This document shows positions 1,022-60,585 of a stretch of DNA of 64,000 nucleotides, piece by piece. Every line of letters begins with the position of its first letter. Position 1 is the stretch's first letter. Position numbers and translations under genes: made by a program. The DNA is from a virus (Duplodnaviria > Heunggongvirae > Uroviricota > Caudoviricetes), in the IMG/VR virus record IMGVR_UViG_3300021066_000001; one strand, written 5' to 3'. Under the pieces are notes generated by a model. It saw nothing but the letters and a program-made list of their open reading frames with translations. It did not search any database and was not told the DNA's origin.

Positions 1022-1687
1022 TCACTTGAACGCCTGCCAAAGCCCGGTACCCACCGAACCGCCGCAAAGCGCCGTCTTGAAGCCTGCCTCTAGTAAGAGG
1101 GCGTAGAGATTCTCTGGACTGATCCACTTAAAATGGGTGACGTGCGGCGGCAGGCCGTCACGAGCTTGCACGTGGTATACCGTGTCGCCGACGAGGTAGG
1201 ATACCTCCACGAAGTTGTGACCGTCGAGCGTGTATTCACGCACCTTCGGAGCACGCGGCGGCGCGACGTTGAACGTGTTGAAGGCGAAGACGCCCCCGGG
1301 CGCGAGCACCGCGTACACGTCCCGCGCGGTCTCGGGAGTCAGCCAATAGTTGATCCCCTGTTGGCACGCGACGACGTCGTACGGCACGTCGTGCACCCAC
1401 CACCGACGCAAGACGTGCTCTACCTGGTCGTGGAAGATGCGGTTGGCGCGGTTGCATGCCCAGAGCGCGGTCCGTGCCTCGGCGGTGAGCATGTCGGGCT
1501 CGTCGTCGACGTAGGACACCCGCGCGGCTCCCGCGTTGATCGCGTGCAGGGAGAGGCGCCCGCCTCCGCCGCAGAGGTCAAGCACGTGCTTACCTTCTAG
1601 CACAACGCCCTCTAGCAGCTCGGCCGGCGTCCGCTTGAAGAAGCGCTGGTAGAGCTGCTCGTAGACCTCGTGGATGGGGTAACGCAT
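1022..1687 (-). CDS. Class I SAM-dependent methyltransferase
   Basis: VLDLCGGGGRLSLHA (motif I GxGxG), acidic residue after beta2 (YVDDEPDM). Confidence 0.7.
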   Translation of the reverse strand: MRYPIHEVYEQLYQRFFKRTPAELLEGVVLEGKHVLDLCGGGGRLSLHAINAGAARVSYVDDEPDMLTAEARTALWACNRANRIFHDQVEHVLRRWWVHDVPYDVVACQQGINYWLTPETARDVYAVLAPGGVFAFNTFNVAPPRAPKVREYTLDGHNFVEVSYLVGDTVYHVQARDGLPPHVTHFKWISPENLYALLLEAGFKTALCGGSVGTGLWQAFK

Positions 1688-2775
1688 CAGTACTTGATCA
1701 GGAAGGCGCCGTGGCCCTCGATGTTGAAGATGTCTTCTTGAGGAATCACTCGCTCGGCATCGCGCACGGTGCCCGCTGGGGCGTAGGGAAGAGTGGGTGC
1801 TCCAGGCACTTGACGGTGCCAGTGGATGATCGATTGACAGGTCGTTTTCTTGAAGATCATGTCGAGGAGCGGGGCGTTGAGGGTCGCTTTCCGCCCCTCG
1901 GTGATCACCTCACGAAACGTGTGATCGACGACCTTCACGTAGACCCGGTCATCGAGCTCATTCTTGCCGCGCCCGGTGGTCAGAAAGCTGCCGTTGATTC
2001 CACGCACCGCGATCGTGCCGAAGACGTAGCCCTCAGGAGTCGTCTCGAACATCTTCTCGTGAGAGCGCACCTCGCTCTCGAATCGCTTGAACATCAACGC
2101 CCAGATCGGATTTGCCGTTGAGCGGGGTGCCTCTTGATCGACCGTCGTCGTGTAGTACTTGTCGGCGGCGCACTCGAGGATGAACTTCTTGAGGTCACCG
2201 GCCTTGCGATCTAGCACCCCGCGCTCGCGGGTGACGATCAGCTTCCGAGAGAGATCGTTCGTGTCGTTCGCAAAGACGGCCGTCGCCTTAGCCTCGAGGA
2301 CGATCCCGTACGCGGCAGAGATGAGCTCCTCCTCTTGAACGTTCGTCAACAGCTTGAACGCGAAGAGCTTTGTCCACGGAGCCGCCTTCTTGACCTCGTC
2401 GACGATCCGAGGAGCGATCGTGAAGTTGATCGGGATGACGTCTCCGGGCTTGTAGTTGTGGCTCGGAAACTTCGTCGTCATCTCGACAGCCGGAATCAGG
2501 TTAGCGACGGCGGCGCCGAGCACGACGGCGTCGAAGTCCTTGGCCATCTTCGTCACCAGGTCTAGATAGTCGTGGATGCCGCGGTGGGTGATGATCCGCA
2601 GGTCGACCGATCCGGTCGGAAGCTCAGCTCCCTTCGCCGTGAGATAGGTGACCTCGGCGTGGTAGCTCAGCTCCTCAGCGAGTTCGGCCATCAATCCGCC
2701 TCTGAACCGGTTCGTGATGATCTTGACCGGGTCGAGGTGAGCGTGGACCGGACCGCCGGTGACGAGGATTCTCAT
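1687..2775 (-). CDS. CoaB-like (phosphopantothenate-cysteine ligase / DFP family) domain fused to a C-terminal domain of unknown function
   Basis: Start trimmed to the internal ATG (MRILVTGGPVHAHLDPVKIITN...), abutting the next gene's stop. Matches E. coli Dfp CoaB domain blocks: ITAGPTREPxDPVR, CAAVADY ~ GAAVANL, ICANDV ~ VFANDT. Confidence 0.6.
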   Translation of the reverse strand: MRILVTGGPVHAHLDPVKIITNRFRGGLMAELAEELSYHAEVTYLTAKGAELPTGSVDLRIITHRGIHDYLDLVTKMAKDFDAVVLGAAVANLIPAVEMTTKFPSHNYKPGDVIPINFTIAPRIVDEVKKAAPWTKLFAFKLLTNVQEEELISAAYGIVLEAKATAVFANDTNDLSRKLIVTRERGVLDRKAGDLKKFILECAADKYYTTTVDQEAPRSTANPIWALMFKRFESEVRSHEKMFETTPEGYVFGTIAVRGINGSFLTTGRGKNELDDRVYVKVVDHTFREVITEGRKATLNAPLLDMIFKKTTCQSIIHWHRQVPGAPTLPYAPAGTVRDAERVIPQEDIFNIEGHGAFLIKY

Positions 2776-3338
2776 TAGCTGTCTTCGCTCTTGTCTTGCC
2801 TGTTCCAGAGGTTGAGACACTTGCGGGCTCGCCTCGCCCACTCCCTCGGCGTCATGTCGAAGTTGGCGTCGCCGAAGAGGATCAGCGCGTTGTCCTTGGG
2901 GACACCGAAGATGATGCCGAGGTTGCGGAAGGGATCGTCCTCCACAAAGCATTGGAGGCTGGGGTTGAGCTGCTCGTCGAACTCCAGGCTGACGTTGCCG
3001 TCACCCTCCAGCTTCAGCTCGAGACCGAGCTTCCGAAAGTAAGGGAGCACAGCGGCGTGGCCAGCCGCGCAGGCGGTCGTTCCGCAGCGCCCGATGTGGC
3101 ACTCCGACAGCGTGTCGCCCGGGACGAGACCCATCTTCTCGGCCTTCGCCTGCCGCGAGGTGACGGTTCGGCCAGGAATCGTGGCCCAGTAGGCCATGTT
3201 GAAGTGCTTGCCTCGCTCGGGCGGCAGCTTCTCCATGTGCTCGATGAGCTTCTTCAGCCGCTTGTCTCCGAAATGTTCTGTGAAGTTCAAGTGCGATCTC
3301 CGTGGATTGTAACAATTAATGTAGATGTAACTTTGCAT
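2775..3338 (-). CDS. Hypothetical protein, KHFNM...CGTxACAxG family (paralog of 40105..40605)
   Basis: Shares the KHFNM-x-W...CGT(T/S)ACA(A/L)G(H/F)AAV.P.F..LGLE motif with the ORF at 40105..40605. Confidence 0.6.
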   Translation of the reverse strand: MQSYIYINCYNPRRSHLNFTEHFGDKRLKKLIEHMEKLPPERGKHFNMAYWATIPGRTVTSRQAKAEKMGLVPGDTLSECHIGRCGTTACAAGHAAVLPYFRKLGLELKLEGDGNVSLEFDEQLNPSLQCFVEDDPFRNLGIIFGVPKDNALILFGDANFDMTPREWARRARKCLNLWNRQDKSEDS

Positions 3339-3608
3339 CTATGAAGAGACGATGAACCTGAGGGTTTTCACGTTGGCCGGAATCTTGTCTAGGTCGACCT
3401 CGAACCCCGACTCCCAGTCTCCGTGGTAGTCACGTGTAGGGACCTCGACCTCCAGGCCCGACGGATCTGGATCTTGCCCACCGAAGAACTCTGAGACGCT
3501 CTCAGGCACTTCGACATTTGCCTTCTTGCAAGCGTCCCAGACCTCCTTCATCTCTCTCCACTTTTCGTCAGGCGGCACAAATCCCATCACGTGCAAAGAT
3601 AAGCTCAT
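3339..3608 (-). CDS. Hypothetical protein (89 aa)
   Basis: ORF track, start trimmed to the internal ATG that overlaps the stop of the ABC ATPase. Confidence 0.4.
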   Translation of the reverse strand: MSLSLHVMGFVPPDEKWREMKEVWDACKKANVEVPESVSEFFGGQDPDPSGLEVEVPTRDYHGDWESGFEVDLDKIPANVKTLRFIVSS

Positions 3609-4447
3609 CAGATGCTCCCGAAGAGACCCTTGATCTCGCGGACCGTGGGCCAGAAGTTGGGGTGAGCGGTAACGTCGCTCGTCCAAGCGAGACCTCGAGC
3701 GATCAGGTCATACTCCTTGACGAGGTACGCGCCAGGAACGAAGTCGCCCTTGTCGTCACGATCACGCCCCAGGACCCAGATCGTGTCGGCGATCGCGACC
3801 GCTTGCTCGATGTCGTGGGTGGTGACGATGATCGTGTTGTACTCGTTCTGCTGGGAGACCTGGAGCACGAGCTTAGCCGCGATCTCCTTGTTGATCGGGT
3901 CGAGCCCCGAGAAGGGCTCGTCCATCAAGATGTAGAAGCTGCTGCACAGCACCTGCTGGATGATCGCGACCCGCTGGCGCATCCCGCCTGAGATCTGAGA
4001 CGGGTAGAGATTCTTGGTGTGGGTCAGGCCGAACTTCTCCATCAGTTCGACGACGTCCTCATCGGACTTCTGGTGGCGACCAGCCGCTAGCTTTAGGTTG
4101 CTCCAGATCGTTCGGTGCTTGAGAAGCGGGTAGCTCTGAAAGACGACGCCGACGTCTCCGGCCTGGGGCTCCTTGTAGGTAGCCGCAGCCTTGTCGCTGC
4201 CGGGGTTCACGCGGTAGCTGATCTTGCCAGACGTCGAGCGCTGAAGCCCGGCCAGACACTTGAAGAGCTGAGTCTTGCCGACGCCCGACGGTCCGAGCAG
4301 CGCAACGACCTGTCCCTGCGTCAGCCCGGGCCGCTTGATGTTGTCGACCTTGAGGTTGACGTCTCGGAGGATCACCTTGGGTCCGTACGAGAGGCCTAGC
4401 CCCTCGACGGTAAGCAAGCGGCTGCCGAGAGAGAAGTCGCGACTCAC
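3608..4447 (-). CDS. ABC transporter ATP-binding protein (SsuB/TauB/NrtD-like family)
   Basis: Walker A GPSGVGKT, signature LSGGMRQRVAI, Walker B ILMDEPFSGLD, H-loop TTHD. Confidence 0.85.
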   Translation of the reverse strand: MSRDFSLGSRLLTVEGLGLSYGPKVILRDVNLKVDNIKRPGLTQGQVVALLGPSGVGKTQLFKCLAGLQRSTSGKISYRVNPGSDKAAATYKEPQAGDVGVVFQSYPLLKHRTIWSNLKLAAGRHQKSDEDVVELMEKFGLTHTKNLYPSQISGGMRQRVAIIQQVLCSSFYILMDEPFSGLDPINKEIAAKLVLQVSQQNEYNTIIVTTHDIEQAVAIADTIWVLGRDRDDKGDFVPGAYLVKEYDLIARGLAWTSDVTAHPNFWPTVREIKGLFGSI

Positions 4448-4746
4448 GACGCCCTCGAGCTGCCCTTGCAGATCACCGCACGTTGTCCAGTTAAGCCAGA
4501 ATGCGGAATCACCTTCGCGATCGCTCGCCGAAGCTCCTCAAGATCGGCTCGATCCTTCTCTAGCTCCATCACGTGGGAGGCGACGCGGCTGATCATCGTC
4601 GCCTTGAAGACCTGCGCGGTCATCTGACCAGGCTTCTTCTCGTACCCCTTCTCGAGGTCGAAGCAAGAGAGCAGAGAGTAGAGCTGCTCGATCGTGAGGT
4701 ACGAGAGCACCTCGGTGAAGATGTCACGCTGCTTTAGATCCATCAC
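4444..4746 (-). CDS. Hypothetical protein
   Basis: ORF track; 4-nt overlaps with neighbours. Confidence 0.4.
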   Translation of the reverse strand: MMDLKQRDIFTEVLSYLTIEQLYSLLSCFDLEKGYEKKPGQMTAQVFKATMISRVASHVMELEKDRADLEELRRAIAKVIPHSGLTGQRAVICKGSSRAS

Positions 4747-5051
4747 GGCCTCCTGAGGTTAAACATGCGAACGGTGTACCAGATCGCGAGCGGCCAGTAG
4801 ATCCAGCCAAACAGCACGCAAACGAAAAGCTCACCGGGGTGATACTTCTTGTCGACCGTCGCCAGAGCCGCCCAGCTGAGAAGTCCAGCCCCAAAGATGT
4901 AATAGCAGATGGGGGCGAAGTGGTCGTCTGGCGCGGCGATGAACCAGGGATGATGCTTGAAGGTCCCGAGAATCACGGCCGCGACGATGATCGCGACGAC
5001 CACCCCCAAGATCACCATGACCTCAAACTTGTCGCGAGGGCGGGCTTTCAT
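4743..5051 (-). CDS. Small integral membrane protein
   Basis: Start trimmed to the ATG overlapping the permease stop (ATGA); three hydrophobic segments. Confidence 0.45.
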   Translation of the reverse strand: MKARPRDKFEVMVILGVVVAIIVAAVILGTFKHHPWFIAAPDDHFAPICYYIFGAGLLSWAALATVDKKYHPGELFVCVLFGWIYWPLAIWYTVRMFNLRRP

Positions 5052-5827
5052 CGAGCGCTCGTCAACGCGACGTAGGGGCAGATGATGTTGCGAATCCACC
5101 TCAGCGCGTAGTCCTGGAGAATTCCGTAGACCAAGATGGTTAATTGTATCGCAAAGATCGCGTCGAGATTTAGGTGCTTGCTCATGTTCATCAGCAACGC
5201 TCCGATCCCGCCCTCATACCTGACGAGCCCCTCCACCATCGAGAGGAGAGTCCACCCGATCGCGGCGTTTTGCCTGATCAGGTCGAACGCTTCATCCATG
5301 CGGCCACGCACGACCACCTCGAAGGTGGCGCGCCACCCCGAGAGCCCGAGGGTCTTCGCGTAGTCGATCTCCTCCTGCGTCACGCTGTCGATGATCGCGA
5401 GCATGTTAGTCAGCAAGAAGGCGGTCATCCCGAAGGTCAAGAGCCAGATCTTGAGCGCGGCGCCGTCGGACGTCCACAGGGTGAAGAAGAAGGTGATGCC
5501 CGCGAAGCCGAGAAATCTCAGCGAGGTCATCCACCTGATGATCGGCTTGAAGGCGGGCGCGGTGTAGAGCACACCCAGGCCGAGCGTGATCGCCGACGCG
5601 TAGAAGATCGCCGACGCGATCGTGACGGAGCTCTTCCAGAGCTCGACGAGCATCCCCTGGGTCGTCGCTAGCATCTCCCAGGCTTGCAAGATCTCTAGCG
5701 GGTTTGGGATGAGCTTGTACGGCGAGATGAACCAGAGAACGAGCAAGATGATCGCTTGCCCGATCGCTAGGATCTTGAGTGACCCGACCGGCTCAAACGG
5801 AACTACGTAGCTCTTCAACGATCCCAC
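5048..5827 (-). CDS. ABC transporter permease (SsuC/TauC-type inner-membrane component)
   Basis: Multiple TM helices; EAA-like loop region (...DYAKTLGLSGWRATFEVVVRG...). Confidence 0.75.
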   Translation of the reverse strand: MGSLKSYVVPFEPVGSLKILAIGQAIILLVLWFISPYKLIPNPLEILQAWEMLATTQGMLVELWKSSVTIASAIFYASAITLGLGVLYTAPAFKPIIRWMTSLRFLGFAGITFFFTLWTSDGAALKIWLLTFGMTAFLLTNMLAIIDSVTQEEIDYAKTLGLSGWRATFEVVVRGRMDEAFDLIRQNAAIGWTLLSMVEGLVRYEGGIGALLMNMSKHLNLDAIFAIQLTILVYGILQDYALRWIRNIICPYVALTSAR

Positions 5828-5912: not shown

Positions 5913-7697
5913 TTAGTTCGCGCGGAGGATAACCTCGACGCGACGGTTCCTCGAGCGCCCGGCGGCGCTCGCGTTGCTCTCCACCGGCATGTCCTGGCCG
6001 TAGCCGCGGGTGGCGATCCGGCTCTCCGGGAAGGCCTCGCGCGAGTTCGTCATCAGGAAGTTCTTCACCGCGTCCGCGCGCTCCTTCGAGAGCGATTGGT
6101 TGCGGGTCGGGTCACCGGTGCTGTCGGTATGTCCGTTGATCTGGACCGACATCCCCGAGACCGCTACCTGGTTGAGGAGCTCGTCCAGCACCGTCGCTGC
6201 CCTCTCGTTGAAGGTCGCCTTGCCGCTGTCGAATTCGATCGTCCAGGCGCGTTTGGCGACGACGTCACCGCGGGCCGCGTCACGGTAGACCGGCAGATCG
6301 GCCTTCGCCATTCGGGTCACCTTGCTGGCGACGCTCTCGATGTACTTCGAGGTCACCACCTGGTTGTAGGGCACCAGGCGCGGCAGCTCGGACGGGTAGA
6401 AGCGGTTGTCCATCTCGCCGAAGACGGTGTAGACGCGCTTGTAGATGTCGTCCTTGCCGCCGACGCCGAAGAGGTGGACGTTGTCCGCGAGGCCGATCGT
6501 GGTCGATCCGCCCAGCTGAACGCCGTACATCTCCTTGCCCTTGAAGTACGTCTTCCAGTAGGCGCCGTCCTCCTCCTTGAAGACCTTGGCGGCGGTCTCG
6601 GCGGCCTGGGTCAGCGCGACGTCGTTCGAGCGGACCAGCTCGCCGCCCTCCCAGGCTGCCGAGAGCATGCCCTCGACGAAGCGGGAGTTCTGCGCCATCC
6701 ACTGCTTGTTCCCGATCACGATCGACGGCATCATCATCGCGTACTCCCTCGTCGACGCGACGGAGGCGATGCCGGCGCAGGCGAGGCGCTTCTCGTTGCA
6801 CTTGGTGACGACGTTGACGTCGCCCGGCGTCCAGGTCGCGGTCCCGTTCTGGCAGGCCTTGACCGTCTTGCCGGTCTTCTTTCCGTTGTTCACCTCGGGT
6901 CGGTTCTCGCAGTAGCCGTTGATCAACTTCTCGTCGGCCTCGGTGAAGGCGCTGACCGAGACGAAGTTCATCGCGTTCGGGTCATACGTCTTCTCGTCCG
7001 GGTTGACCGGGATGCCGTTGTCACCCGCCCACTTCATGCAGATGTGAACGTCGCCGTCGCGGAGAACGCCGCCGATCAGCGAGCCGCGCGCCTTTTGCGG
7101 GTCGGCCTTGACGGCCGCCGGCAGCATGCACTTGTCCTCGCCGCGGGAGAAGCCGATCGCGCCGACCACCTGGATCTCCTGGCCGAGCTTGTTCAGCACC
7201 TGCTGGGCGCCGTACGCGAAGCCGGGCAGGGCGTCACCCATGATGACGGCGAACGCCGCTCCTCGGTTCGGCACCGCGACGCCCTTGGAGACGTCCTCGG
7301 CGAAGGCGACCAGCTCGGCGGTGATCTTGCCGTAGTCGTCCTCGCGCTGCACGTCGAGCTTGACCCCGGCCTTGGCCATCAGGCTGTTCGGAGCCGTTGA
7401 CGGGCCGCCGTTCGCGTACATCAGGCCCAGCGTCCCGTTCCAGGGAATCGTCAGGAACTTCACCCGGATGTCGCTGTTCCCGGCCGGCGCGAGCGCCACC
7501 TGGGTGACCTGCGCTCCTGCGCTCGGGGCCGGGGCGCCGAGGTTGCCTGACGGCAGGTCGACGCGAGTCGGCACGCTCGACGCGACGGTGGGTTTGGTGT
7601 TGAAATAACCGCGTTGGTCCGCATAGTTGTAGCCGAAGTAGGCTGCGATTGCCACGACGGCCACGACCAGGGCTTTGCCTCCAGCTTTCAATTGCAT
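5913..7697 (-). CDS. ABC-type substrate-binding protein (NMT1/SsuA/TauA-like) fused to a C-terminal OmpA/MotB peptidoglycan-binding domain
   Basis: N-terminal signal/TM; C-terminal OmpA_C hallmark TIEFDSGKATF...VQINGHTDSTGDPTRNQSLSKERADAVKNFL...RRVEVIL. Confidence 0.7.
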   Translation of the reverse strand: MQLKAGGKALVVAVVAIAAYFGYNYADQRGYFNTKPTVASSVPTRVDLPSGNLGAPAPSAGAQVTQVALAPAGNSDIRVKFLTIPWNGTLGLMYANGGPSTAPNSLMAKAGVKLDVQREDDYGKITAELVAFAEDVSKGVAVPNRGAAFAVIMGDALPGFAYGAQQVLNKLGQEIQVVGAIGFSRGEDKCMLPAAVKADPQKARGSLIGGVLRDGDVHICMKWAGDNGIPVNPDEKTYDPNAMNFVSVSAFTEADEKLINGYCENRPEVNNGKKTGKTVKACQNGTATWTPGDVNVVTKCNEKRLACAGIASVASTREYAMMMPSIVIGNKQWMAQNSRFVEGMLSAAWEGGELVRSNDVALTQAAETAAKVFKEEDGAYWKTYFKGKEMYGVQLGGSTTIGLADNVHLFGVGGKDDIYKRVYTVFGEMDNRFYPSELPRLVPYNQVVTSKYIESVASKVTRMAKADLPVYRDAARGDVVAKRAWTIEFDSGKATFNERAATVLDELLNQVAVSGMSVQINGHTDSTGDPTRNQSLSKERADAVKNFLMTNSREAFPESRIATRGYGQDMPVESNASAAGRSRNRRVEVILRAN

Positions 7698-9663: not shown

Positions 9664-10548
9664 TTAGACCGCCACCTCAAGCTTCACGAACGGATGAGAT
9701 CTGTATCCGACGATGTCGAAGTCCTCGGGCTTGTAGCCGTCGATGTCAGTGTTGTCGGTCAAGATGTCTAGACCGGTCGGACAGTCGATCGGTGCTCTGT
9801 CAGGAGAGCTTAAGATCTCCCTCATCTTCTCGACGTGGTTGAGATAGATGTGGGCGTCGCCGTAGTTGATCTTGAGATGCCGCGGCTTCAAGCTGGTCGC
9901 TCGAGCGAGGAGATGAGTGAGCAATGCGTACTGCGCGATGTTGAACGGGCCGCCCAGGCAAGTGTCCCACGACCGGATCGCCATCATCAGGTCGAGGTGA
10001 CCGTCGTTCGAGACGTAGCACTGGAAGTCACGATGACAGGGCGGCAGCCCCATCTTCTCGACGTAGGCCGGGTTCCACGCGGACACGATCAAGCGACGAT
10101 CACGAGGTCTCGTCTTGATGCGCTCGATCAAGTTCTTGATCTGGTCGATCGGCGGCTCGAAGACGACCGTGCGACCAGGCTCACGCGTCAGGATCGAGTG
10201 GTGCTTGAACCGGTCCTCGCCGAACGCCTCGTAAGCTGCACCCGGCCAACGACGCCACTGCACGCCGTAAACCGGACCCAAACTTCCGTCTGGCTTCGCC
10301 CATTGATCCCAGATATGAACGCCGTGGTCATGCAGGTACTTGATGTTAGGCTCGCCGCGGAGAAACCAGAGCATCTCGATGAACGCATGCTTCCACAGCG
10401 TCTTCTTGATCGTGACGAGCGGAAAGCGCTGACGAAGATCGAAGGAGAGTTGGCCGCCGAAGATCGAGAGAGTGCCGACTCCGGTACGATCCTCGCGGCG
10501 CTCTCCCTCGGAGAGAATCTTGTTGAGCAAGTCTACGTATTGTTTCAC
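9664..10548 (-). CDS. thyA: Thymidylate synthase (ThyA family; dUMP hydroxymethylase cannot be excluded)
   Basis: RRLIVSAWNP, LPPCH catalytic Cys, FQCYV, GGPFNIAQYALL (Asn = uracil-type specificity), GDAHIY; ~30-aa C-terminal extension. Confidence 0.85.
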   Translation of the reverse strand: MKQYVDLLNKILSEGERREDRTGVGTLSIFGGQLSFDLRQRFPLVTIKKTLWKHAFIEMLWFLRGEPNIKYLHDHGVHIWDQWAKPDGSLGPVYGVQWRRWPGAAYEAFGEDRFKHHSILTREPGRTVVFEPPIDQIKNLIERIKTRPRDRRLIVSAWNPAYVEKMGLPPCHRDFQCYVSNDGHLDLMMAIRSWDTCLGGPFNIAQYALLTHLLARATSLKPRHLKINYGDAHIYLNHVEKMREILSSPDRAPIDCPTGLDILTDNTDIDGYKPEDFDIVGYRSHPFVKLEVAV

Positions 10549-11896: not shown

Positions 11897-12130
11897 TCAG
11901 AAGATTCCCAGATGCTTCAAGAGCAGCATGATCGCGGTGACAGGGAGAACGACCGCCCAGGTCTTCCAGTCTCGCAAGAAGTAGATGAATAGCTCAAACG
12001 ATTGAGTGACGCCGTCAAGCATGATCTGCCGAGTTTCTCTGATCAGCGCCGTGACCGTCAAGAAGCCGATGGTGACGACGAGAATCGTCACCATCAGCCA
12101 CGGGTGGCTCCCGAGAAGCTCGACGATCAC
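11897..12130 (-). CDS. Small membrane protein
   Basis: Two hydrophobic helices. Confidence 0.45.
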   Translation of the reverse strand: MIVELLGSHPWLMVTILVVTIGFLTVTALIRETRQIMLDGVTQSFELFIYFLRDWKTWAVVLPVTAIMLLLKHLGIF

Positions 12131-12786
12131 TAGCGGAGCGAACCCTTGCCGAGCTCGGCGTGCGAGTACTCGAGCGACTCGAAGTCGGTCGAGAGGGTCT
12201 TGGCGAGGTGATCGCGCAGGTGGGCGAGGTCGGCTGCCAGGGTCGGCTGGTCATGCGCGACGATCTTGGCGCGCGCCGTGTTGTAGAAGATCGCGGCGCC
12301 GACGATGACGTCGAAGAGGATCTCGATCTTGCCCGTCACCTTGTTCTTCGCGTACTTCGGCGCCTGGACCGCGCTGTAGCGCCAGCCGCGCACGCCCTTG
12401 ACGCGCGACTTCTCGGCCCAGCGCTTGATGACGTCGCCGATCTCGCCGCGTAGATCGGCGAGATCGTGAGCCGAGGACGCGTTCGTGATCACCTTGAGCT
12501 TGATCGCAGACAGCTCCGGAACAGCGGCCACCGCCGAGTGGATGTTCGGAACGTCGACCGAGCGATAGTTCGCCTTGTTCTCAAAGAGAACGTTGGCCGA
12601 CATGCGCTTCAAGCGCTTGTCGGTGAGCAGAGCGACGATCGCGTCGGTCGCGTTGGGGACGACAAGCTCGGTGAAGTCCGGCTGATTGTCCATCTGACCC
12701 TCCGGGCCGAACGCCGAGGTCGCGACGTCGAAGCCGCGAACGATGAAGGGACGTGCTCTCTTGGACTTCTGGGTGCTGAGGTTCAT
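12130..12786 (-). CDS. Hypothetical protein
   Basis: ORF track, codon-usage consistent. Confidence 0.5.
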   Translation of the reverse strand: MNLSTQKSKRARPFIVRGFDVATSAFGPEGQMDNQPDFTELVVPNATDAIVALLTDKRLKRMSANVLFENKANYRSVDVPNIHSAVAAVPELSAIKLKVITNASSAHDLADLRGEIGDVIKRWAEKSRVKGVRGWRYSAVQAPKYAKNKVTGKIEILFDVIVGAAIFYNTARAKIVAHDQPTLAADLAHLRDHLAKTLSTDFESLEYSHAELGKGSLR

Positions 12787-12812
12787 GGGTATCTCCCGTG
12801 AGAAAAGTGGAA

Positions 12813-14162
12813 TTACTTCGAGTCGAACTCGATGAGGTAGCGCGGCCGCGCTTGCGACAGGCGGTAGACGATCATCTCGTTATTCATCACGCCCGACTTT
12901 TTGGCTTGAGCGTACATCGAGTCGTAGCCGCTGGGCAGCCGGCCAGTCGGGTTGCTGGGCGTGTAGTAGTTGCCCATCGCGACGTCGAAGAGGAACATGA
13001 AGCAGTTGGAGTCGCGGCGGCCGCCGTCCCAGTAGCCGTAGCTGTAGTTGAGGGATTTGGTCGACTGGTCGCTGAAGTAGAGGCCGTCGCCGAACATGCG
13101 GCCGGTGATGTTGATCGAGCCGCCGCTGCGCGGAATGATCAGGCCCGACTTCAGGATCGACAGCACGTTGAAGACGCGCGTGCCGTGCCAGAGGGTCCAG
13201 TTGTTCTTCGCCGCCTGGGCGACCGGGTCATTCTCGAACGCCTTGGAGGCGCCCGGCAGGTCGACCTCGAAGAAGCGCACCGGCTTGAGGTGACGCGACT
13301 CGTGGATGTTGTTCGCGCTCTCGCGGAACATCTTGATGATGCGATCGATCATCTTGCCGTCCGTGAGGACCTTGATCTCGGAGTCGAAGACGTTCGGCAT
13401 GTCGGCGATCGACTTGTCGGCCGCGATCGCGCTCTTCGCCCTAGACTCGGCGAGGTCGGCCGAAGCTTCCATCTGGTCCAGCATCGTGTTCTGGCGCTGG
13501 AGGGCGTTCATGTCGGGGATGAAGGCGCGGTGCCAGCCGCGCGAGTGGCCGACCTTTTGCGGCACCTTGCGGAGATAGGCGCCCAGCTTGTTCATGAAGG
13601 CAGGGTTGTCGAAGTCACCGCGCTGGACGTAGACCGCGAGGTCCTGGAGGATCGTGCGAGCGTCGATGATCGAAACCTTGCCGATCACGCCGACGGCCGA
13701 CGAGATCACGCCCGTCTTCAGGTCGATGTCGATCATGCCACCGGACGAGGCGATCAGCTCATGCTTGTTCGCCTTGACGAGCCGCTCGACGAGGTCATGG
13801 AGAACAGGGTCAGCGGCCTTGACGAGCTGTGACTTGGCCGCCTCGACCAGGACGACCTGGCTCTTGACCGGACCGGTGGGCCCGGTCGGTTGGCGCTCAG
13901 CGATGACGTTGACGATCTCGTAGCCCTTGAGGAGCTTCTCGGCGATCTTGCCGGCGAGGTTGAGTTGCTTCGGGGGCTCGACGTTCAGCGTGTCACGGCC
14001 GACGCGGCCGTACTTGACGATGATGCCGGCGGGGTCCTTGACGAACTCCCAGACCTTGTTATTGTTGTTCTCGGGGTCAGTGCAGACGAACTTTGCGGTG
14101 TCGAGCTGTGCGTATTGTGCGGCGAGCTTTTTTGCGGCTTCTTTATCGAGTTGGACGACCAT
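12813..14162 (-). CDS. PARP-family ADP-ribosyltransferase with N-terminal WGR domain
   Basis: WGR-like KVWEF...KYGRVG; catalytic H-Y-E signature: TLWHGT (His-Gly-Thr), GRMFGDGLYFSDQSTKSLNYSY (Tyr), NEMIVY...YLIEF (Glu). T4-late-like TATAAATAG 53 nt upstream. Confidence 0.7.
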   Translation of the reverse strand: MVVQLDKEAAKKLAAQYAQLDTAKFVCTDPENNNNKVWEFVKDPAGIIVKYGRVGRDTLNVEPPKQLNLAGKIAEKLLKGYEIVNVIAERQPTGPTGPVKSQVVLVEAAKSQLVKAADPVLHDLVERLVKANKHELIASSGGMIDIDLKTGVISSAVGVIGKVSIIDARTILQDLAVYVQRGDFDNPAFMNKLGAYLRKVPQKVGHSRGWHRAFIPDMNALQRQNTMLDQMEASADLAESRAKSAIAADKSIADMPNVFDSEIKVLTDGKMIDRIIKMFRESANNIHESRHLKPVRFFEVDLPGASKAFENDPVAQAAKNNWTLWHGTRVFNVLSILKSGLIIPRSGGSINITGRMFGDGLYFSDQSTKSLNYSYGYWDGGRRDSNCFMFLFDVAMGNYYTPSNPTGRLPSGYDSMYAQAKKSGVMNNEMIVYRLSQARPRYLIEFDSK

Positions 14163-14214
14163 GATTTCCTCTTATCGCGATTATGATGGATGCCCTAAGT
14201 TCTAGGTGCACAAT

Positions 14215-14223
14215 CTATTTATA
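14215..14223 (-). promoter_or_regulatory. T4-late-type promoter TATAAATAG (the TAG doubles as the stop of the upstream small gene)
   Basis: Exact TATAAATA on the minus strand, 53 nt before the PARP-like gene ATG; AGAGGAAA SD follows. Confidence 0.5.
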
Positions 14224-14418
14224 GGAAGAGATCAATCTCAATTCGGGGCGGCGCTTGCGGGGAGAGGGCGGTGTAGCCGAGCGCTCTCCGTCGCTGAAGC
14301 CGAACTTGTAGAAGAACACCGCGAAGCTCAGGTAAGCCGCGCCCATGAGTCCAAACGCGATGTAAAGGGCGTCATCACCGCGGAACGGAGCCAGGTAGAG
14401 AGCGGTGCACACCGCCAT
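14215..14418 (-). CDS. Small membrane protein (67 aa)
   Basis: Trimmed from ORF 14215..14649 to the ATG before the hydrophobic C-terminal half; the upstream part overlaps a better ORF in another frame. Confidence 0.35.
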   Translation of the reverse strand: MAVCTALYLAPFRGDDALYIAFGLMGAAYLSFAVFFYKFGFSDGERSATPPSPRKRRPELRLISSYK

Positions 14419-14476
14419 GATTCCGAGCGACGGCAGCCGCAGAGGAGCATGAGCATCGTAACGAGGAAGGAGGGCT

Positions 14477-14788
14477 TCACCGGTTGTACCAGAGGACGTG
14501 GGTCGCCCACTCGGGGGCAAATTGCTCTCCAGAGAGAATCTTGGAGGGTTTGATCCAGTTTGTGATGTCGCTGTAGACGACATGTGTAGCTGTTGCCCAG
14601 TCGCCCATTCCGTCATAATCGATGAAACCGCCTGCTTGGCAGGCCTCAACGAACTCCTCGATCGTCATCAGATCGCCGTTGGAAGCTTGCTTGACGAATC
14701 GCCCCTCATCTTGCTCGACGTCTTCGAACTCGATGAGCTTCGCATTTTCCGGAATCATGAAGGTAATTTTATCACAAAACTCGAGCAA
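14477..14788 (-). CDS. Hypothetical acidic protein
   Basis: ORF track. Confidence 0.5.
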   Translation of the reverse strand: MLEFCDKITFMIPENAKLIEFEDVEQDEGRFVKQASNGDLMTIEEFVEACQAGGFIDYDGMGDWATATHVVYSDITNWIKPSKILSGEQFAPEWATHVLWYNR

Positions 14789-14807
14789 AGAACACGAAAG
14801 TGAGAGC

Positions 14808-15954: not shown

Positions 15955-16760
15955 CCGAGGTGCTTCTCCCTCATGCGCTCGAGAGTAACTTGTGCGCCTC
16001 GCGGAGGGATTGCTCCGAAGACGACCTCTCGGTAGGTGCGCAGGTAGCTGATGGCTTGTGCTTGGGTCCAAGCGTGGATCACGTAGTAGAAGGCTCCCTC
16101 TTGCTGGGTGTCAGGGACATCCTTGAACGCGGAGGAGAGCTTCTTCACCTGTTCCTTCTCGAGGCCGATGAAGCAGAGCTCCCAGACTCGCTTGCGCCGC
16201 CGGATCTCAAGCTTGATCTGCTCGCCGCGAGAGTTGAGGCGAGGACTCATCGGCTCGGTGATCGGGATGATCTCAAACCAGGACACCCGCACGTCGTCAT
16301 AGCGAGCGTGCGGTGGCCAGTACCGATTCGGAACCTCTCTCAGGTCGTAATCGACGTAGCCCTCGGAGGATCTGTCACCGCGGCTTGGCACCTCGAAGAA
16401 CATCCACGCGAGGGACAGCCAATCGATGACGCGCTCTCGCTCCGTGAAGTTGCGAAGTCGTCCCATGCATCCCCGGTGCACGTGCTGTCGGGTCTCGCGA
16501 TCATAGACCTGGTCGTCGAGAGACTCCGACGAGTTGACCCACCGCTGGCCGCAGAGCGGACACTTTTGTCCGACCAGATTGGCGCCCATGCGCCATGCCA
16601 CCAACTCTCCGTCCTCGCTGAGAACGCCGATCATGAACTGGTTGAACTCGTCGTAGCCGGTGAGCTGGTCGTGCGTCACCGGACGCTTGATGAATCCTCT
16701 CACCTGAGCCATCAGCTTCGAGCTCATGCCCAGATCCTCATGAAGATGTCGGCGGTCCAC
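15951..16760 (-). CDS. Hypothetical protein with CxxC...HxxC zinc-binding motif
   Basis: ORF track; CPLCGQRW...HVHRGC. Confidence 0.45.
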   Translation of the reverse strand: MDRRHLHEDLGMSSKLMAQVRGFIKRPVTHDQLTGYDEFNQFMIGVLSEDGELVAWRMGANLVGQKCPLCGQRWVNSSESLDDQVYDRETRQHVHRGCMGRLRNFTERERVIDWLSLAWMFFEVPSRGDRSSEGYVDYDLREVPNRYWPPHARYDDVRVSWFEIIPITEPMSPRLNSRGEQIKLEIRRRKRVWELCFIGLEKEQVKKLSSAFKDVPDTQQEGAFYYVIHAWTQAQAISYLRTYREVVFGAIPPRGAQVTLERMREKHLG

Positions 16761-17512
16761 CCGTTGACGATGTCCGAAACCTGTCCGTCGCCGAGCTCGA
16801 TGAGGCGCCAGCCGCCGTCGACGCGCTGAGCGACGTCGAGCGAGAAGAACTTGCTGCGGACCTCGGGAATGATGTCGTAGACAAACATCGGCACAGGCAC
16901 GTCACCGAGCGAAAACAGCGTCCCGTTCAAGATGAAGTAGCGACGCTCGCTACCAGCAACATACTCTTCGGCGCGTCGAAAGGTAATTCCTCCCTCGAGC
17001 TCGCGGTACTGGCGCATCGCCCTGATGATCTCCGTCACCTTCTCTGGAGAGTCGGCGATCGAGCCTGGAGCCGTCTTGAGGGACTTGACGTAGTCCTTGA
17101 TGAAGATCTCGCCCCAGCCGAGCTTGGCGAACTCGGCGGCGTGGTCATCGTTGAGGTTGTAAAACCGCGACTCGGTGGTGTACTGCTGGATCACCGGGTT
17201 GTGGTACCACCCGTAGATCCAGTGAGTGCGGGCGTACTCGTCGACCTGAGTGAGCGGTGTGGCGCCGCGTGAGAGGATCGCGTCAACGAGCTGTCCGTAC
17301 TGCGGCACCGTAAGCATCCATCCCCGATAGACGACGGTCGCCTCCTCGGGGATCTTGCCGATTCCCTTGAAGGTGTACGAGCGCTGAAGCTCGTCGAGGT
17401 CGAAGAGCGACGCTGAGAAGCCCATGCTGAGGGCGAGCGCATGCTGATCCGCGACGAGCTCGTCGGGTTTCTTCCTGCCGAGCGGGTCGCAAGGAAAGAG
17501 GAAGTGAATCAC
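16724..17512 (-). CDS. ATP-grasp fold protein
   Basis: Length and motif pattern (IFIKDYVKS...GSIADSPEK...RRYFILNGTLF...RLIELGDGQVSD) are consistent with phage ATP-grasp/DUF4343 proteins. Confidence 0.45.
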   Translation of the reverse strand: MIHFLFPCDPLGRKKPDELVADQHALALSMGFSASLFDLDELQRSYTFKGIGKIPEEATVVYRGWMLTVPQYGQLVDAILSRGATPLTQVDEYARTHWIYGWYHNPVIQQYTTESRFYNLNDDHAAEFAKLGWGEIFIKDYVKSLKTAPGSIADSPEKVTEIIRAMRQYRELEGGITFRRAEEYVAGSERRYFILNGTLFSLGDVPVPMFVYDIIPEVRSKFFSLDVAQRVDGGWRLIELGDGQVSDIVNGWTADIFMRIWA

Positions 17513-19020: not shown

Positions 19021-19203
19021 TTACTTCTTGGATGCGCCCGAGCGCTTGGCCGCCATCTCCCTGCGAGCGTCGACCTTGGCTGCCCTCTTCTCCTTCTTCT
19101 CGGCTACCTTCTGAGCGTGTGTCTTTTGCTCAGGCTTGGCCGGGTCCTTGGCGACCGCGGAGAGAGTGAAGAGCGCAACGACGAGAGCTAGGATGAGTTT
19201 CAT
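19021..19203 (-). CDS. Small secreted Lys-rich protein
   Basis: Signal peptide MKLILALVVALFTLSAVA followed by a K-rich tail. Confidence 0.5.
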   Translation of the reverse strand: MKLILALVVALFTLSAVAKDPAKPEQKTHAQKVAEKKEKRAAKVDARREMAAKRSGASKK

Positions 19204-19367
19204 GTGGTTCTCCGAGTGATATGATGCCGCTAGTGTGGCCTATTTACTAGAGCGGTACTTCCCGCACCCCTTGACGCAGAGAGTCTTCGGAGAGTGATAT
19301 CGAGAGTGAAAGGTGCGAAAGTCGTGCCAGCAAAGGACCCGCCTGAGAATCCAGTAGAGCTTGTTGA

Positions 19368-20538: not shown

Positions 20539-20585
20539 GCTCCATCTTAACTTTGGAGAGCGCGCCGGGATATTTTTCTAAATAG

Positions 20586-21146
20586 GTGATGCTGCTCAGC
20601 GAGCTCGCCATCTCAGACGTCACCTTTCACGTGAGCGAAGACCGTGAGGGTGACAATAACCGCGGCTTCCGCGTGGATCGCATCGAAGCGAAGCGTGACG
20701 GGAAGGTGATCGGCTACATCCAGGTCTCTTACATCCCGAGCGAGCGCTTCAAGAAGTTCTACACTAGCCTCGAGCAATACACCCGACACATCGCTGGAGG
20801 GCATCCGCCCAGCGAGGATCCTGAGACCCGCAAGCGCCAGGAGCGAGCGTTTCGAGACTTCGAGCACTACCACGTTGACAAGCCGTTCGTCGAGTTCATC
20901 AGGGTGATGGACGAGATCGACGGAGCAGATAGGAGCTATCGTCGCCAGGGTTTAGGCCTCGAGCTCTACAAGCAGATGTTCAAGTACCTGAAGAGGCGTG
21001 GGCTCAAGCTCTACGCCTCGAACCTCCAATCAGACGAGGCTAAGGCCGCGTGGGACAAAATGGAGAAGATCTTCGTGGTGAAGCGCGAGATGTTTCGCGT
21101 GCACCGCAAGGATGTCGAGCGCCGCTACCTCGCCGCGCTCAGGTAG
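20586..21146 (+). CDS. Hypothetical protein, possibly GNAT-like acetyltransferase
   Basis: RRQGLGLELYKQMFKYL resembles the GNAT motif A (Q/RxxGxG/A); weak. Preceded by CTAAATAG. Confidence 0.35.
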   Translation: MMLLSELAISDVTFHVSEDREGDNNRGFRVDRIEAKRDGKVIGYIQVSYIPSERFKKFYTSLEQYTRHIAGGHPPSEDPETRKRQERAFRDFEHYHVDKPFVEFIRVMDEIDGADRSYRRQGLGLELYKQMFKYLKRRGLKLYASNLQSDEAKAAWDKMEKIFVVKREMFRVHRKDVERRYLAALR

Positions 21147-21761: not shown

Positions 21762-22811
21762 TCACGTCAGCTTCTTGAGTGCCCTCAAGACACACTCTGG
21801 CACGTACTGACGCACCGCGCTCTCCCACCCCTCGAGGTGAAGCATGCTCTTGACGACCGACGAGCTCACCTCTGTTAGGTGCGACGGCGGCATCAGGAAG
21901 ACCGTCTCGACCTCTGGCGCGATCTTCTTGTTGACCAGGTTGAGCTGTGTCTCGTAGTCGAAGTCAGTGACGTTGCGGATGCCCCGGAAGACAAACTTGG
22001 AGCCTGTCTCTCTAGCGTAGGCGACGAGCATCTTGTTCTGGGGAAGCGCCGTGATGTTGACCGCTCCTTCTGCCAGGGGCGTCTCTCTGATCGCTTCGGC
22101 CACGAGGGCTTTCCGCTCCTCGAAGTCAAACAGGCCCTTCTTGTTCGGATTATACGCAACCACGACATCGACGGCGTCAACGAGGTCAAGAGCTTTTTCG
22201 ATCAGCCACATGTGACCCTCGGTGATCGGATCGAACGAGCCAGCGACGATCCCTCGCGTGATGCCCCTGGCGACGTCGACCGCCCGTAGCGCCGCCATGT
22301 TGAGATCAGAGTCGGTCGTGTCGATGATCAAGTCGCACTTGTGTGCGTGATCGTGCCAGTCTCCCTGGCTAGCGATGATCGCCTTGATCTTCTCACGGGT
22401 GAAGCCGTTCCGCTTCATCACGCGTTCGATGCGAGTCTCCTCGTCTGCGACAATCGCGATGACCTTGTCGAATTGGTCATCCATCCCCATCTCGAAGAGG
22501 AGGGGAAACTCGACGATGATGTCTCGCTTTCCCGCGTTGAGAAGCAGATTGAGCTTGAGGGACATGAAGGAGCCAAAGAGACCCTCTACCCAGCGCAGCT
22601 TCTCAGGTGCTTGGAAGACGATGTCCGAGATCGCCTTGCGATCGCTGGTCCCGAAGTACTCGAAGAGCTTCGCCTTGATCTCGGTGTCCTCGTAGAGCTC
22701 ACGCACCAGGTCGTCGATGTTGACGAAGTTGAACTCCGTGAGGAGAAGCTTGAGCTTGTTGACGAGCGTCGTCTTTCCGCTTCCGATGCCGCCGGTGATG
22801 GCTATCTTCAC
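21762..22811 (-). CDS. Fusion protein: dephospho-CoA kinase (CoaE-like, N-terminal) + phosphopantetheine adenylyltransferase (CoaD, C-terminal)
   Basis: N-terminus MKIAITGGIGSGKTT...NIDD (CoaE P-loop + DxD). C-terminus GSFDPITEGH...FRGIRNVTDFDYETQLNLVNK...VFLMPPSHL..SSSVVK aligns closely with E. coli CoaD. Confidence 0.75.
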   Translation of the reverse strand: MKIAITGGIGSGKTTLVNKLKLLLTEFNFVNIDDLVRELYEDTEIKAKLFEYFGTSDRKAISDIVFQAPEKLRWVEGLFGSFMSLKLNLLLNAGKRDIIVEFPLLFEMGMDDQFDKVIAIVADEETRIERVMKRNGFTREKIKAIIASQGDWHDHAHKCDLIIDTTDSDLNMAALRAVDVARGITRGIVAGSFDPITEGHMWLIEKALDLVDAVDVVVAYNPNKKGLFDFEERKALVAEAIRETPLAEGAVNITALPQNKMLVAYARETGSKFVFRGIRNVTDFDYETQLNLVNKKIAPEVETVFLMPPSHLTEVSSSVVKSMLHLEGWESAVRQYVPECVLRALKKLT

Positions 22812-35512: not shown

Positions 35513-35582
35513 CTCGCCTCCGAGAATAGATGAAGAATTGTATCATCTCTCAGCTCCAAAGTACACTGGCTAAATATCTCTC

Positions 35583-36053
35583 ATGAAGCTCAGTGATCTG
35601 TACGAGTCCGACGCGAGAGACACCGTCGACGAGATCGAGGTGACCGACGGGATCCAAGCCGCCGAGGAGGCCTGGGCGGGAGGCGTCGGTGACTTCGGCG
35701 ATCCTGAGGCCGCGTATCACGTCCAAGCGATGCCCGGCTACTTCGCCTACCGCTCTGAGCTCGAGGAGCGGCTCCGCGAGAAGCACGGCGACACGCTCAC
35801 GCTCTACCGGAGCATCACCCCCAAGAAGCTGGAGGACTGGAAGAACGGCGCCGATCTAGACCCGATGGGCTTCACGACGAGCAAGAAGTTCGCCGAGAGC
35901 TGGGGCAACTTTGCGGGGAACCGCGGTAAGAAGATGCTCGTGATCAAGGTCGACGTTCCCGTCGGAGCGATCATCATGCGGGGCAAGGCCGAGGAACACG
36001 AGCTCGTCGTTGACGCGAACGAGATCTCAGCTCACACGATCAAGGTCGTCTAG
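35583..36053 (+). CDS. Hypothetical protein (plus strand)
   Basis: ORF track; preceded by GCTAAATAT 6 nt before the ATG. Confidence 0.5.
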   Translation: MKLSDLYESDARDTVDEIEVTDGIQAAEEAWAGGVGDFGDPEAAYHVQAMPGYFAYRSELEERLREKHGDTLTLYRSITPKKLEDWKNGADLDPMGFTTSKKFAESWGNFAGNRGKKMLVIKVDVPVGAIIMRGKAEEHELVVDANEISAHTIKVV

Positions 36054-37532: not shown

Positions 37533-37577
37533 TTGAGAATTTTAACTCAAAACTCTCAAAAAGAACAGGCTTGAGCG

Positions 37578-44502: not shown

Positions 44503-44561
44503 CGTAAGCTCCTTACGGTTAAATTACAGGCTTGCGTCTTTCGCTCACCTGGTGCTGCAAT

Positions 44562-45731: not shown

Positions 45732-45825
45732 GAAGAAGCTCCTTCTATCGTGGTTGAGCGCGACCCGTCTATCGGGTCACGATGCTATTTAAGGACATCC
45801 TAACACAGTCATGCTAGGATGTAAA

Positions 45826-55820: not shown

Positions 55821-55829
55821 CATAAATAT
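55821..55829 (+). promoter_or_regulatory. T4-late-like promoter variant CATAAATAT
   Basis: 52 nt before the collagen-like gene ATG, the same spacing as the TATAAATAG/PARP pair. Confidence 0.3.
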
Positions 55830-60481: not shown

Positions 60482-60585
60482 CTGAGAATAACTCCTGTGT
60501 GGCAGTTATGACTGGTCGGAACCCGATAGGCGAACCGCCAGGTACTTCTAGCGCAAGACCCCACCTGGGCGTCCTGCGATTCTAT

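Follow-up and report, generated by a model that had tools for sequence, protein, structure and literature searches.

A predicted three-domain PARP of an uncultured T4-like jumbo phage, its T4-late-like upstream element and a possible link to NAD+ salvage

The gene described here lies on the minus strand of a 64,000-nt stretch of viral DNA (IMG/VR record IMGVR_UViG_3300021066_000001; Caudoviricetes), referred to below as the window, and encodes a 449-aa member of the PARP (poly(ADP-ribose) polymerase) family. The explanation that best fits the evidence as a whole, and which we consider likely, is that of a compact phage PARP that would be transcribed from a promoter of the T4-late type and linked to an NAD+ salvage operon of the same phage. 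An identical protein was found on a metagenomic contig of 395,674 bp, k141_1025171 of the ENA record ERZ27257322, in which the window occupies positions 26,792-90,791; the flanking data used below consist of two 10-kb stretches. An earlier description made from the letters alone (the sequence-only reading) had noticed the PARP-like gene and its upstream motif at 12813-14223. That observation is confirmed, and the predicted PARP identity is strongly supported.

The minus-strand open reading frame (ORF) 12813..14162 starts with ATG and contains all the motifs quoted in the sequence-only reading: LWHGT (residues 324-328), YFSDQS (362-367), NEMIVY (428-433) and YLIEF (442-446). The protein matched the PARP catalytic family PF00644 in Pfam with 90.7 bits (cutoff 26.7; E 1.1e-25) and PHROG 23333, annotated 'polymerase' (E 2.6e-62). 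A phmmer comparison with the PDB sequences retrieved catalytic fragments of PARP1 (E 2e-16); this alignment begins at residue 155 and therefore covers the helical regulatory domain (HD) besides the ADP-ribosyltransferase (ART) fold. Membership of a known defence or anti-defence family was not indicated, as PADLOC gave no match and NCBIfam none for the PARP. The H-Y-E signature is intact (H326-Y362-E429), and H326, G327, Y362, K369, Y373 and E429 are invariant across 21 aligned homologues. In the phmmer alignment and in the family profile, NEMIVY is aligned on NEYIVY of PARP1 and PARP2, the strand carrying E988 of PARP1. The catalytic glutamate, whose absence the sequence-only reading had named as an observation that would count against it, is thus present, with E429 opposite E988. 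The predicted fold is of the H-Y-E diphtheria/PARP type and not of the R-S-E cholera-toxin type.

The WGR-like N-terminal module proposed earlier was also borne out, although the Pfam WGR model applied to the single sequence remained below threshold (12.6 bits vs 22). PF05406 (WGR) is precomputed for many relatives of the protein, and a profile built from the 21 homologues aligns end to end with the WGR-CAT chains of PARP2 and PARP1 in the PDB (E about 5e-30). This profile places NNNKFWE on NNNKYY of PARP2 and YGRVG on WGRVG, and the WGR residues N33, N35, K36, G52-R53-V54-G55 and Y81 are invariant among the homologues. Between the two terminal domains, residues 155-260 were aligned by phmmer with the helical domain of PARP1, PF02877 is precomputed for many relatives, and the AlphaFold (AF2) model contains helices over residues 100-247. 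With this model (pLDDT 79, pTM 0.67) the best Foldseek match was the PARP1 WGR-CAT chain of a DNA-break complex (4opx_C/4dqy_C; E 1.8e-21, TM 0.62), in a full-length alignment that spans 487 columns; the next matches were PARP2-DNA complexes, including PARP2 7aeo_A. The protein is accordingly predicted to be an enzyme of the PARP1-3/bacterial-PARP type with a three-domain architecture and an intact NAD+ site.

Upstream of the gene, positions 14215..14223 of the minus strand read TATAAATAG. The spacer between the last A of TATAAATA (14216) and the PARP ATG (14162) is exactly 53 nt long, and the TAG of TATAAATAG (14215..14217) is the stop codon of a 67-aa ORF (14215..14418, minus strand), as had been described; no Pfam or PHROG match was found for this small gene. 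The exact octamer occurs once in the window, compared to 0.08 copies expected, and 8 of 100 shuffled sequences contained at least one copy. The count by itself is only marginally unusual, and the significance of the octamer lies in its position and conservation. In the related loci L003, L005, L007, L008 and L032, ATAAATA is located 53-87 nt upstream of the PARP ATG, and in L002 this distance is 12 nt. The motif is present in just 1-4 copies per locus of ~13 kb, the flanking sequence has diverged, and five independent related lineages keep the motif upstream of PARP. The core TAAATA recurs in nine copies within the window and three more in the 20 kb of flanks. All 12 copies are intergenic or at a gene edge and oriented to the next gene or RNA, in sequence that is ~90% coding.

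The single exact copy, together with the 8% of shuffles that contain one, would also suit a chance AT-rich octamer in a spacer. A consensus scan further identified an overlapping weak sigma70-like sequence, TTGAGA-N18-TAGATT (14241..14212; 9/12 match), which could be the real promoter. We consider both variants very unlikely. Chance does not account for the uniform intergenic placement and orientation of the 12 cores, and TAGATT is not conserved (TAGCTT in L005, TATCTC in L032, TAAAGT in L007), whereas the TAAATA motif is conserved in orthologous position. The sigma70-type promoters of this phage are also different, with the consensus T(T/G)TAC-N17-TAnAAT. The candidate sigma70 promoter directly upstream of PARP was rejected because its -10 sequence is not conserved in the relatives.

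Several properties of the TAAATA element point to a promoter. A hairpin stem begins 5-6 nt after its last A in six of seven cases; such hairpins were found at PARP, nadM, hsp20, L005, L007/8 and L032, with mutually unrelated sequences and z-scores from -1.4 to -6.7. An Rfam scan of the whole window found no known RNA family, so the PARP hairpin corresponds to no catalogued element. Start codons are located 4-6 nt after TAAATA at three to four sites (leaderless geometry). A tmRNA gene (tag ASNDATWAIAA) just past the end of the window (~66.1-66.5 kb; L038 6653..7040) has its 5' end 8 nt after a GTAAATAG motif, and a homologue of ribosomal protein bL12 is encoded nearby (L038 8127..8519). Taken together, hairpin bases, leaderless AUGs and the tmRNA 5' end are found 5-8 nt after TAAATA at at least 10 sites. 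The element precedes three opposite-strand genes (20586, 35583 and 55882), and no phage-type -35 element was found upstream of the TATAAATA box. Two further sequence features were observed in such regions. GGATATTTTTCTAA stands directly upstream of two opposite-strand genes (plus strand; 20560-20585 before the GNAT gene at 20586, and 55855-55881 before the collagen-like gene at 55882). In the close clade, TTCATAA(T/G), sometimes duplicated, lies between hairpin and ribosome-binding site, and a sigma70 -10/-35 arrangement does not explain it.

These properties resemble those of T4 late promoters, which consist of a box of 8 bp, placed upstream of the start of transcription by about one helical turn, have no -35 element, and are the source of the only T4 transcripts that run in either polarity (PMC2988020). 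For CBB and GAP32, which are T4-like jumbo phages, both late-type ATAAATA motifs and a gp55-like sigma factor are on record (PMC5259590), and sigma factors and gp33 have been reported for all 'group 2' jumbo phages (PMC7824862). The xTAAATA(G) element is therefore very probably a promoter of the T4-late type, from which the transcript would begin at the base of a 5' stem-loop. The sequence-only reading had proposed a late T4-type promoter: a recurrent, conserved element with T4-late geometry is indeed present, while the late timing is an analogy with T4. In E. coli, 5'-terminal stem-loops stabilise mRNAs, and by analogy the 5' stem-loop of PARP would stabilise its message.

The same arrangement was found upstream of an NAD+ salvage operon. 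This consists of nadM (44562..45731), which encodes an NMN adenylyltransferase joined to a Nudix domain (ADP-ribose pyrophosphatase), and nadV/NAMPT (43006..44502); the NCBIfam E-values are 1.4e-74 (below the curated cutoff of the model) and 3e-146, respectively. The TTAAATAG-hairpin module of nadM is located at the same 53-nt distance as the PARP module, and its hairpin is strong (-15.8 kcal/mol, z = -3.05). PARPs release nicotinamide and, after turnover, ADP-ribose, and NAMPT and NadM convert these compounds back towards NAD+. Given this recycling and the common upstream module, co-regulation of PARP and nadM-nadV is a reasonable inference. Co-occurrence of PARP and NAMPT was also considered as a specific linkage and rejected, since NAMPT is common whether or not PARP is present. 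Phage NAMPT is generally read as a counter to NAD+-depleting defences (PMC9503650). Near the operon, a protein with a metallo-beta-lactamase fold (46571..47461, minus strand) matches the anti-Pycsar Apyc1 family (PF23023, 70.4 bits) and is a candidate cyclic-nucleotide-degrading anti-defence gene product.

The replicon carrying these genes is assigned to a T4-like jumbo phage that is uncultured and about 395 kb in size. The T4-type genes near PARP encode topoisomerase II subunits, RNA ligase 1 (Rnl1), a dNMP kinase, thymidylate synthase (ThyA) and a MazG-like pyrophosphatase; an R2K ATP-grasp enzyme is also among the neighbours. The nearest isolates according to topoisomerase II are BUDD, X1, RsoM2USA, XacN1, Xoo-sp13, CM1 and RAS14 (44-48% identity), all of them jumbo phages of Xanthomonas, Ralstonia or Stenotrophomonas. 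The GC content at third codon positions (GC3) of PARP, 0.90, equals that of the core replication genes, which argues that PARP is not a recent import. In eight close IMG/VR relatives (L002-L008, L032) the gene order topoisomerase II, dNMP kinase, Rnl1, PARP, (Nudix), 218-aa protein, MazG, ThyA is kept, with the small Nudix gene present between PARP and the homologue of the 218-aa gene in five of them. Its GC3 match and conserved synteny make PARP native to the phage. Distant PARP loci have no neighbours in common with the window, which implies that the gene also passes from one phage lineage to another. In nine of the distant loci (L015, L019, L020, L022, L025, L026, L027, L030, L031) a gene of ~448 aa (e.g., L031 7262..8608) overlaps or abuts the PARP stop codon. 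It is an unrelated, uncharacterised gene, its sole family signal is a weak Xrn1 SH3-like match, and it is a candidate functional partner of PARP in the distant clade.

This location does not support the earlier suggestion that the enzyme is virion-associated: PARP belongs to the topoisomerase/dNMP kinase/RNA ligase/MazG/ThyA block and is not found among structural genes. We regard it as highly improbable that the phage packages PARP in its virions and injects it together with the DNA, in the manner of T4 Alt. The late-type promoter motif is the sole evidence for this at the locus, to which may be added a remark on myoviruses in general, that infection may deliver their ARTs (PMC9503650). However, there are no structural genes nearby, the H-Y-E, WGR-HD-ART enzyme differs from the R-S-E type of Alt, and its design suits switching on by nucleic-acid breaks inside the cell. 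A targeting or processing signal was likewise not found, although no search aimed at one was made.

Homologues of the protein are encoded in 16 of the 50,697 phage records searched, namely XacN1, Xoo-sp13, CM1, RAS14, three Klebsiella phages, Cellulophaga phi4:1/phi17:2 and two uncultured megaphages, and several of these records are annotated 'poly(ADP-ribose) polymerase'. Megablast of region 12000-15000 against the same records gave no match, so a close cultured relative is lacking. In contrast, more than 1,538 matches were obtained in a metagenome database clustered at 90% identity, many of them on contigs of 100-400 kb, and 341 clusters (50% identity) were found at E<=1e-30 among 1.84 billion representatives. 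The IMG/VR loci with PARP number 33, many of them on contigs of 170-476 kb. The description of such enzymes as rare in phages thus holds for isolates, but does not hold for the jumbo phages of metagenomes. The clade of the window protein is metagenomic (47-59% identity) and has its own synteny. Cellular homologues (L039-L060; 34-43% identity) are concentrated in Armatimonadota (Chthonomonadaceae, Armatimonas), where one is carried by a 6.1-Mb contig; others were found in Gemmobacter, on a Paracoccus plasmid and in Nocardia. PARPs in 'a few jumbo phages (e.g. BBA65562.1)' were noted by Iyer et al. (2021), who proposed for them a mode of action like that of other phage ARTs (PMC7824862). Since phage PARPs have already been annotated (XacN1, Xoo-sp13, PHROG 23333) and discussed in the literature, the window protein is not a new enzyme class or system.

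By homology with PARP1/2, HaPARP and CdPARP, the WGR domain would bind a DNA (or RNA) break and thereby relieve the block imposed by the helical domain. The enzyme would then carry out NAD+-dependent ADP-ribosylation of itself and of nearby proteins or nucleic-acid ends, probably in the form of chains. According to the sequence geometry, its gene would be transcribed from a gp55-type (T4-late-like) promoter with the start at the base of the 5' stem-loop, and nadM-nadV, behind the same promoter-plus-hairpin module, would renew the substrate, with nicotinamide and ADP-ribose being recycled. Our best guess for the targets is proteins or DNA ends at breaks that arise when host DNA is degraded, when the phage replicates and recombines, or when nuclease-based defence acts.

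A bolder version of this mechanism, which we consider decidedly unlikely, makes PARP the sensor and effector of a phage 'break response', under common control, through the TAAATA-plus-5'-hairpin module, with the NAD+ salvage operon as its source of fuel. It would sense nicks or ends in the DNA of phage or host, which might come from replication and recombination, from the clamp-loading nicks of T4-type late transcription, or from cuts by defence nucleases. ADP-ribosylation of DNA ends, or of host proteins such as nucleases, ligase or RNA polymerase, would then protect or re-programme the infection. If true, this would amount to a self-contained NAD+/ADP-ribose regulon in a widespread jumbo-phage clade.

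A number of observations weigh against the explanation put forward here. Some of them concern the enzyme. Whether it forms polymers or performs mono-ADP-ribosylation cannot be read from its sequence, and the loop that precedes the catalytic glutamate is ~27 residues shorter than in PARP1 (query 418-425 vs chain 297-331 in the phmmer alignment). The ~70 window proteins scanned, the precomputed Pfam lists of the two flanks and the neighbourhood of PARP in the 33 related loci yielded no eraser of the poly(ADP-ribose) glycohydrolase (PARG), macrodomain or ARH type. To our knowledge, two bacterial PARPs and no phage PARP have been assayed so far. As regards NAD+ salvage, NAMPT is encoded in 2,019 phage records, including relatives that have no PARP. 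Others concern the promoter. The full T4 octamer is present at the PARP site only, the local consensus of the phage being the looser xTAAATA(G/T); ATAAATA is absent upstream of PARP in L004 and L006; and the PARP hairpin is only modestly stable (z = -1.9). Sigma-factor searches covered the window and the 20 kb of flanks: no homologues of T4 gp55, gp45 or RpbA were found in the window by tblastn and phmmer, and the Pfam lists of the flanks contain no entry suggestive of gp55 or gp45, nor was gp33 seen. The window is almost without structural genes, its one recognisable virion candidate being the collagen-repeat protein, which has CATAAATAT upstream. Finally, PARP of Xoo-sp13 is preceded by a consensus TTGACA-N17-TATAAT instead.

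The enzymatic points bear on a rather unlikely alternative, in which the protein is a mono-ADP-ribosyltransferase or NAD+-consuming enzyme for host takeover or shut-off, with a role like that of T4 Alt/ModA/ModB, and in which the WGR domain does no more than tether it to nucleic acid. PARP3 provides a precedent, as it has H-Y-E and is nevertheless a mono-transferase. The much shorter acceptor-side loop and the lack of a nearby PARG (window, flanks and 33 related loci) would fit this alternative, as would the suggestion of Iyer et al. that phage PARPs, like the other ARTs of phages, have host proteins as their substrates (PMC7824862). On the other hand, HaPARP and CdPARP, which have the same architecture, make poly(ADP-ribose) (PAR) in vitro (PMC5966428, PMC8120803), and tankyrases polymerise despite a similarly short loop (contiguous phmmer alignment). 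The investment of the phage in NAD+ salvage also makes NAD+ depletion an unlikely aim. Chain formation by a break-activated PARP is the activity that we favour.

The points on transcription bear mainly on the time of expression. A second promoter class, sigma70-like with the consensus T(T/G)TAC-N17-(TG)nTAnAAT, was found in the intergenic regions; 11 of its 12 matches are on the minus strand, and none stands directly upstream of PARP. Minus-strand sites of this class include 888-916, 9613-9641, 14766-14794, 18940-18968, 35537-35565, 37539-37567, 42654-42682 and 42924-42952. Those at 42924, 42654, 37539 and 14766 end 5-7 nt before a start codon, which suggests leaderless early mRNAs. Between the 14766..14794 promoter and PARP no terminator-like site was found on the minus strand, so early read-through into PARP is likely and the gene is probably not expressed late alone. 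We expect it to be expressed both early and late, and exclusively late expression is unsupported.

It is possible, if on balance unlikely, that PARP is simply an early or middle gene, transcribed by the host sigma70 RNA polymerase from the 14766..14794 promoter as part of a 93aa-67aa-PARP-218aa-77aa unit. TATAAATAG and its hairpin would then represent a stop-codon context combined with an RNA processing, stability or attenuation element. The terminator-free path from this promoter, which has the early consensus of the phage and lies 545 nt upstream of the box, agrees with such a role, as do the position of PARP within a nucleotide-metabolism and replication block, the perfect TTGACA-N17-TATAAT of the Xoo-sp13 gene and the failure of tblastn and phmmer to find gp55 in the window. 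Two stop codons are also contained in TAAATAG, which often extends over the end of the gene upstream. However, TAAATA is found as well before opposite-strand genes, the tmRNA and leaderless starts, where there is no upstream gene end. The constant offset of 5-6 nt to hairpins and starts suits a transcription start site, and the motif has been kept in five independent lineages despite diverged flanks. The early reading and the T4-late-like promoter that we prefer are not mutually exclusive.

PARP1-like enzymes are central to eukaryotic DNA-damage signalling. Within a large clade of T4-like jumbo phages, most of them uncultured, the compact WGR-HD-ART PARP is a stable gene that is well adapted, and the promoter-plus-5'-hairpin module common to PARP and the NAD+ salvage operon provides a concrete regulatory hypothesis. 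The purpose of a DNA-break-activated PARP in a bacterial virus could be tested in the cultured phages XacN1, Xoo-sp13 and RAS14/CM1.

The coordinates of PARP and of the related elements are collected in Table 1. Several other genes of the window were observed. Besides ThyA (9664..10548), a second, divergent protein with the thymidylate-synthase fold is encoded at 51124..51801 (minus strand; PF00303, 1.9e-10); it is a possible dNMP hydroxymethylase, which would hint at modified DNA. Two minus-strand genes for coenzyme A biosynthesis (1687..2952 and 21762..22811) make up a set of a DFP/CoaBC-like flavoprotein and CoaE (dephospho-CoA kinase) fused to a cytidylyltransferase-like (PPAT-like) domain. 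Unusual auxiliary genes, all on the minus strand (60020..62610, 5913..7697, 3608..5827 and 16724..17512), comprise those for Hsp20, an M3 oligopeptidase, a 594-aa OmpA-domain protein, an ABC-transporter ATPase with permease-like genes, and the R2K ATP-grasp enzyme. The collagen triple-helix-repeat protein (55882..58032, plus strand) has 716 aa and is encoded on the opposite strand in a patch of 68% GC.

Table 1. Positions of the predicted PARP gene, its domains, neighbouring genes and putative regulatory elements in the window
Feature	Position	Strand	Basis or remark
PARP gene (WGR - helical regulatory domain - ART)	12813..14162	-	ORF, Pfam, PHROG, PDB profile, Foldseek
WGR domain, about residues 22-90, with NNNNKVWE (32-39) and YGRVG (51-55)	13893..14099	-	family profile
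Helical regulatory (HD/PARP_reg-like) domain, about residues 100-250	13413..13865	-	phmmer, PF02877 in relatives, AF2
ART catalytic domain, about residues 262-447, with H326, G327, Y362, K369, Y373, E429	12822..13379	-	
Shine-Dalgarno AAGAGG, 5 nt 5' of the PARP ATG	14168..14173	-	direct sequence reading
TCATAAT motif between hairpin and ribosome-binding site	14180..14186	-	TTCATAA(T/G) in the same place in L002, L005, L007, L008, L032
Hairpin starting 5 nt past the box, predicted as a stem-loop at the 5' end of the transcript	14190..14211	-	RNAfold -9.4 kcal/mol, z = -1.9; hairpins unrelated in sequence at the corresponding position in L003, L005, L007/8 and L032 and at nadM and hsp20
TATAAATA box, core TAAATA at 14216..14221	14216..14223	-	exact octamer; ATAAATA kept in L002, L003, L005, L007, L008, L032
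67-aa hydrophobic small gene, stop inside TATAAATAG	14215..14418	-	gene call also on source contig
93-aa gene (phrog_14149), first gene of putative early transcription unit	14477..14758	-	
Sigma70-like promoter TGTTCT-N17-(TG)TGATAAAAT, early type	14766..14794	-	distance of 545 nt to the TATAAATA box downstream and of 604 nt to the PARP ATG
218-aa gene, 26 nt 3' of PARP, with its own GGGAG ribosome-binding site	12130..12786	-	kept downstream of PARP in L002-L006
77-aa gene closing the PARP-218aa-77aa run	11897..12130	-	
NAD+ salvage operon nadM-nadV	43006..45731	-	Pfam, NCBIfam
TAAATAG (TTAAATAG) with strong hairpin 4 nt later, 53 nt upstream of nadM	45785..45791	-	architecture as at PARP
AATAAATAG and hairpin upstream of hsp20 (60020..60481)	60582..60588	-	
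CATAAATAT, 53 nt upstream of the collagen-repeat gene 55882..58032	55822..55828	+	
GTAAATAG, followed after 36 nt by the 60-aa gene 19021..19203	19240..19246	-	
TAAATA, 6 nt before the ATG of the opposite-strand gene 35583..36053, leaderless geometry	35571..35576	+	
CTAAATAG adjoining the start of the opposite-strand gene 20586..21146 (GNAT)	20579..20585	+	

Among known enzymes, the bacterial HaPARP (Herpetosiphon aurantiacus) and CdPARP (Clostridioides difficile CD160) are very similar to the window protein. They have the same size (about 430-450 aa) and the same WGR-HD-ART order, they likewise carry YGR in place of WGR, and the catalytic triad of CdPARP (H322/Y359/E428) occupies nearly identical positions to that of the window PARP (H326/Y362/E429). 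Both make PAR in vitro, and HaPARP needs DNA to do so (PMC5966428, PMC8120803). They are cell-encoded and have cognate PARGs, whereas the window PARP is encoded by a lytic-type jumbo phage and carries an extra N-terminal helix of 20 residues, and no PARG partner was found for it in the window, flanks or related loci. The WGR-HD-ART core of human PARP1/2/3 aligns end to end with the window PARP at about 19-23% identity (Foldseek), with conservation of H-Y-E, the HG dipeptide, the second tyrosine and the SKS-type lysine; the zinc fingers, BRCT domain and N-terminal tail of the human proteins are absent from the phage protein.

The annotated phage PARPs, namely those of XacN1 (BBA65562.1), Xoo-sp13 (QDJ96554.1), Stenotrophomonas phages CM1/RAS14, Klebsiella phage FBKp34 and Cellulophaga phages phi4:1/phi17:2, are 32-40% identical to the window PARP over 94-95% of its length, and these phages are mostly jumbo or large myoviruses. 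Xoo-sp13 has a sigma70 promoter at PARP, in contrast to the TAAATA-hairpin module of the window clade. With T4 late promoters the PARP site has in common the identical octamer TATAAATA, an inferred start ~6 nt downstream and the use of both strands; T4 late promoters depend on gp55/gp33/gp45, and the consensus of the window phage is just xTAAATA(G/T). T4 Alt/ModA/ModB and, by prediction, the window PARP are both NAD+-dependent ART families of T4-like phages. The T4 enzymes, however, are mono-ADP-ribosylating proteins of the R-S-E cholera-toxin type without WGR or HD, and Alt is packaged in the virion (PMC8120803).

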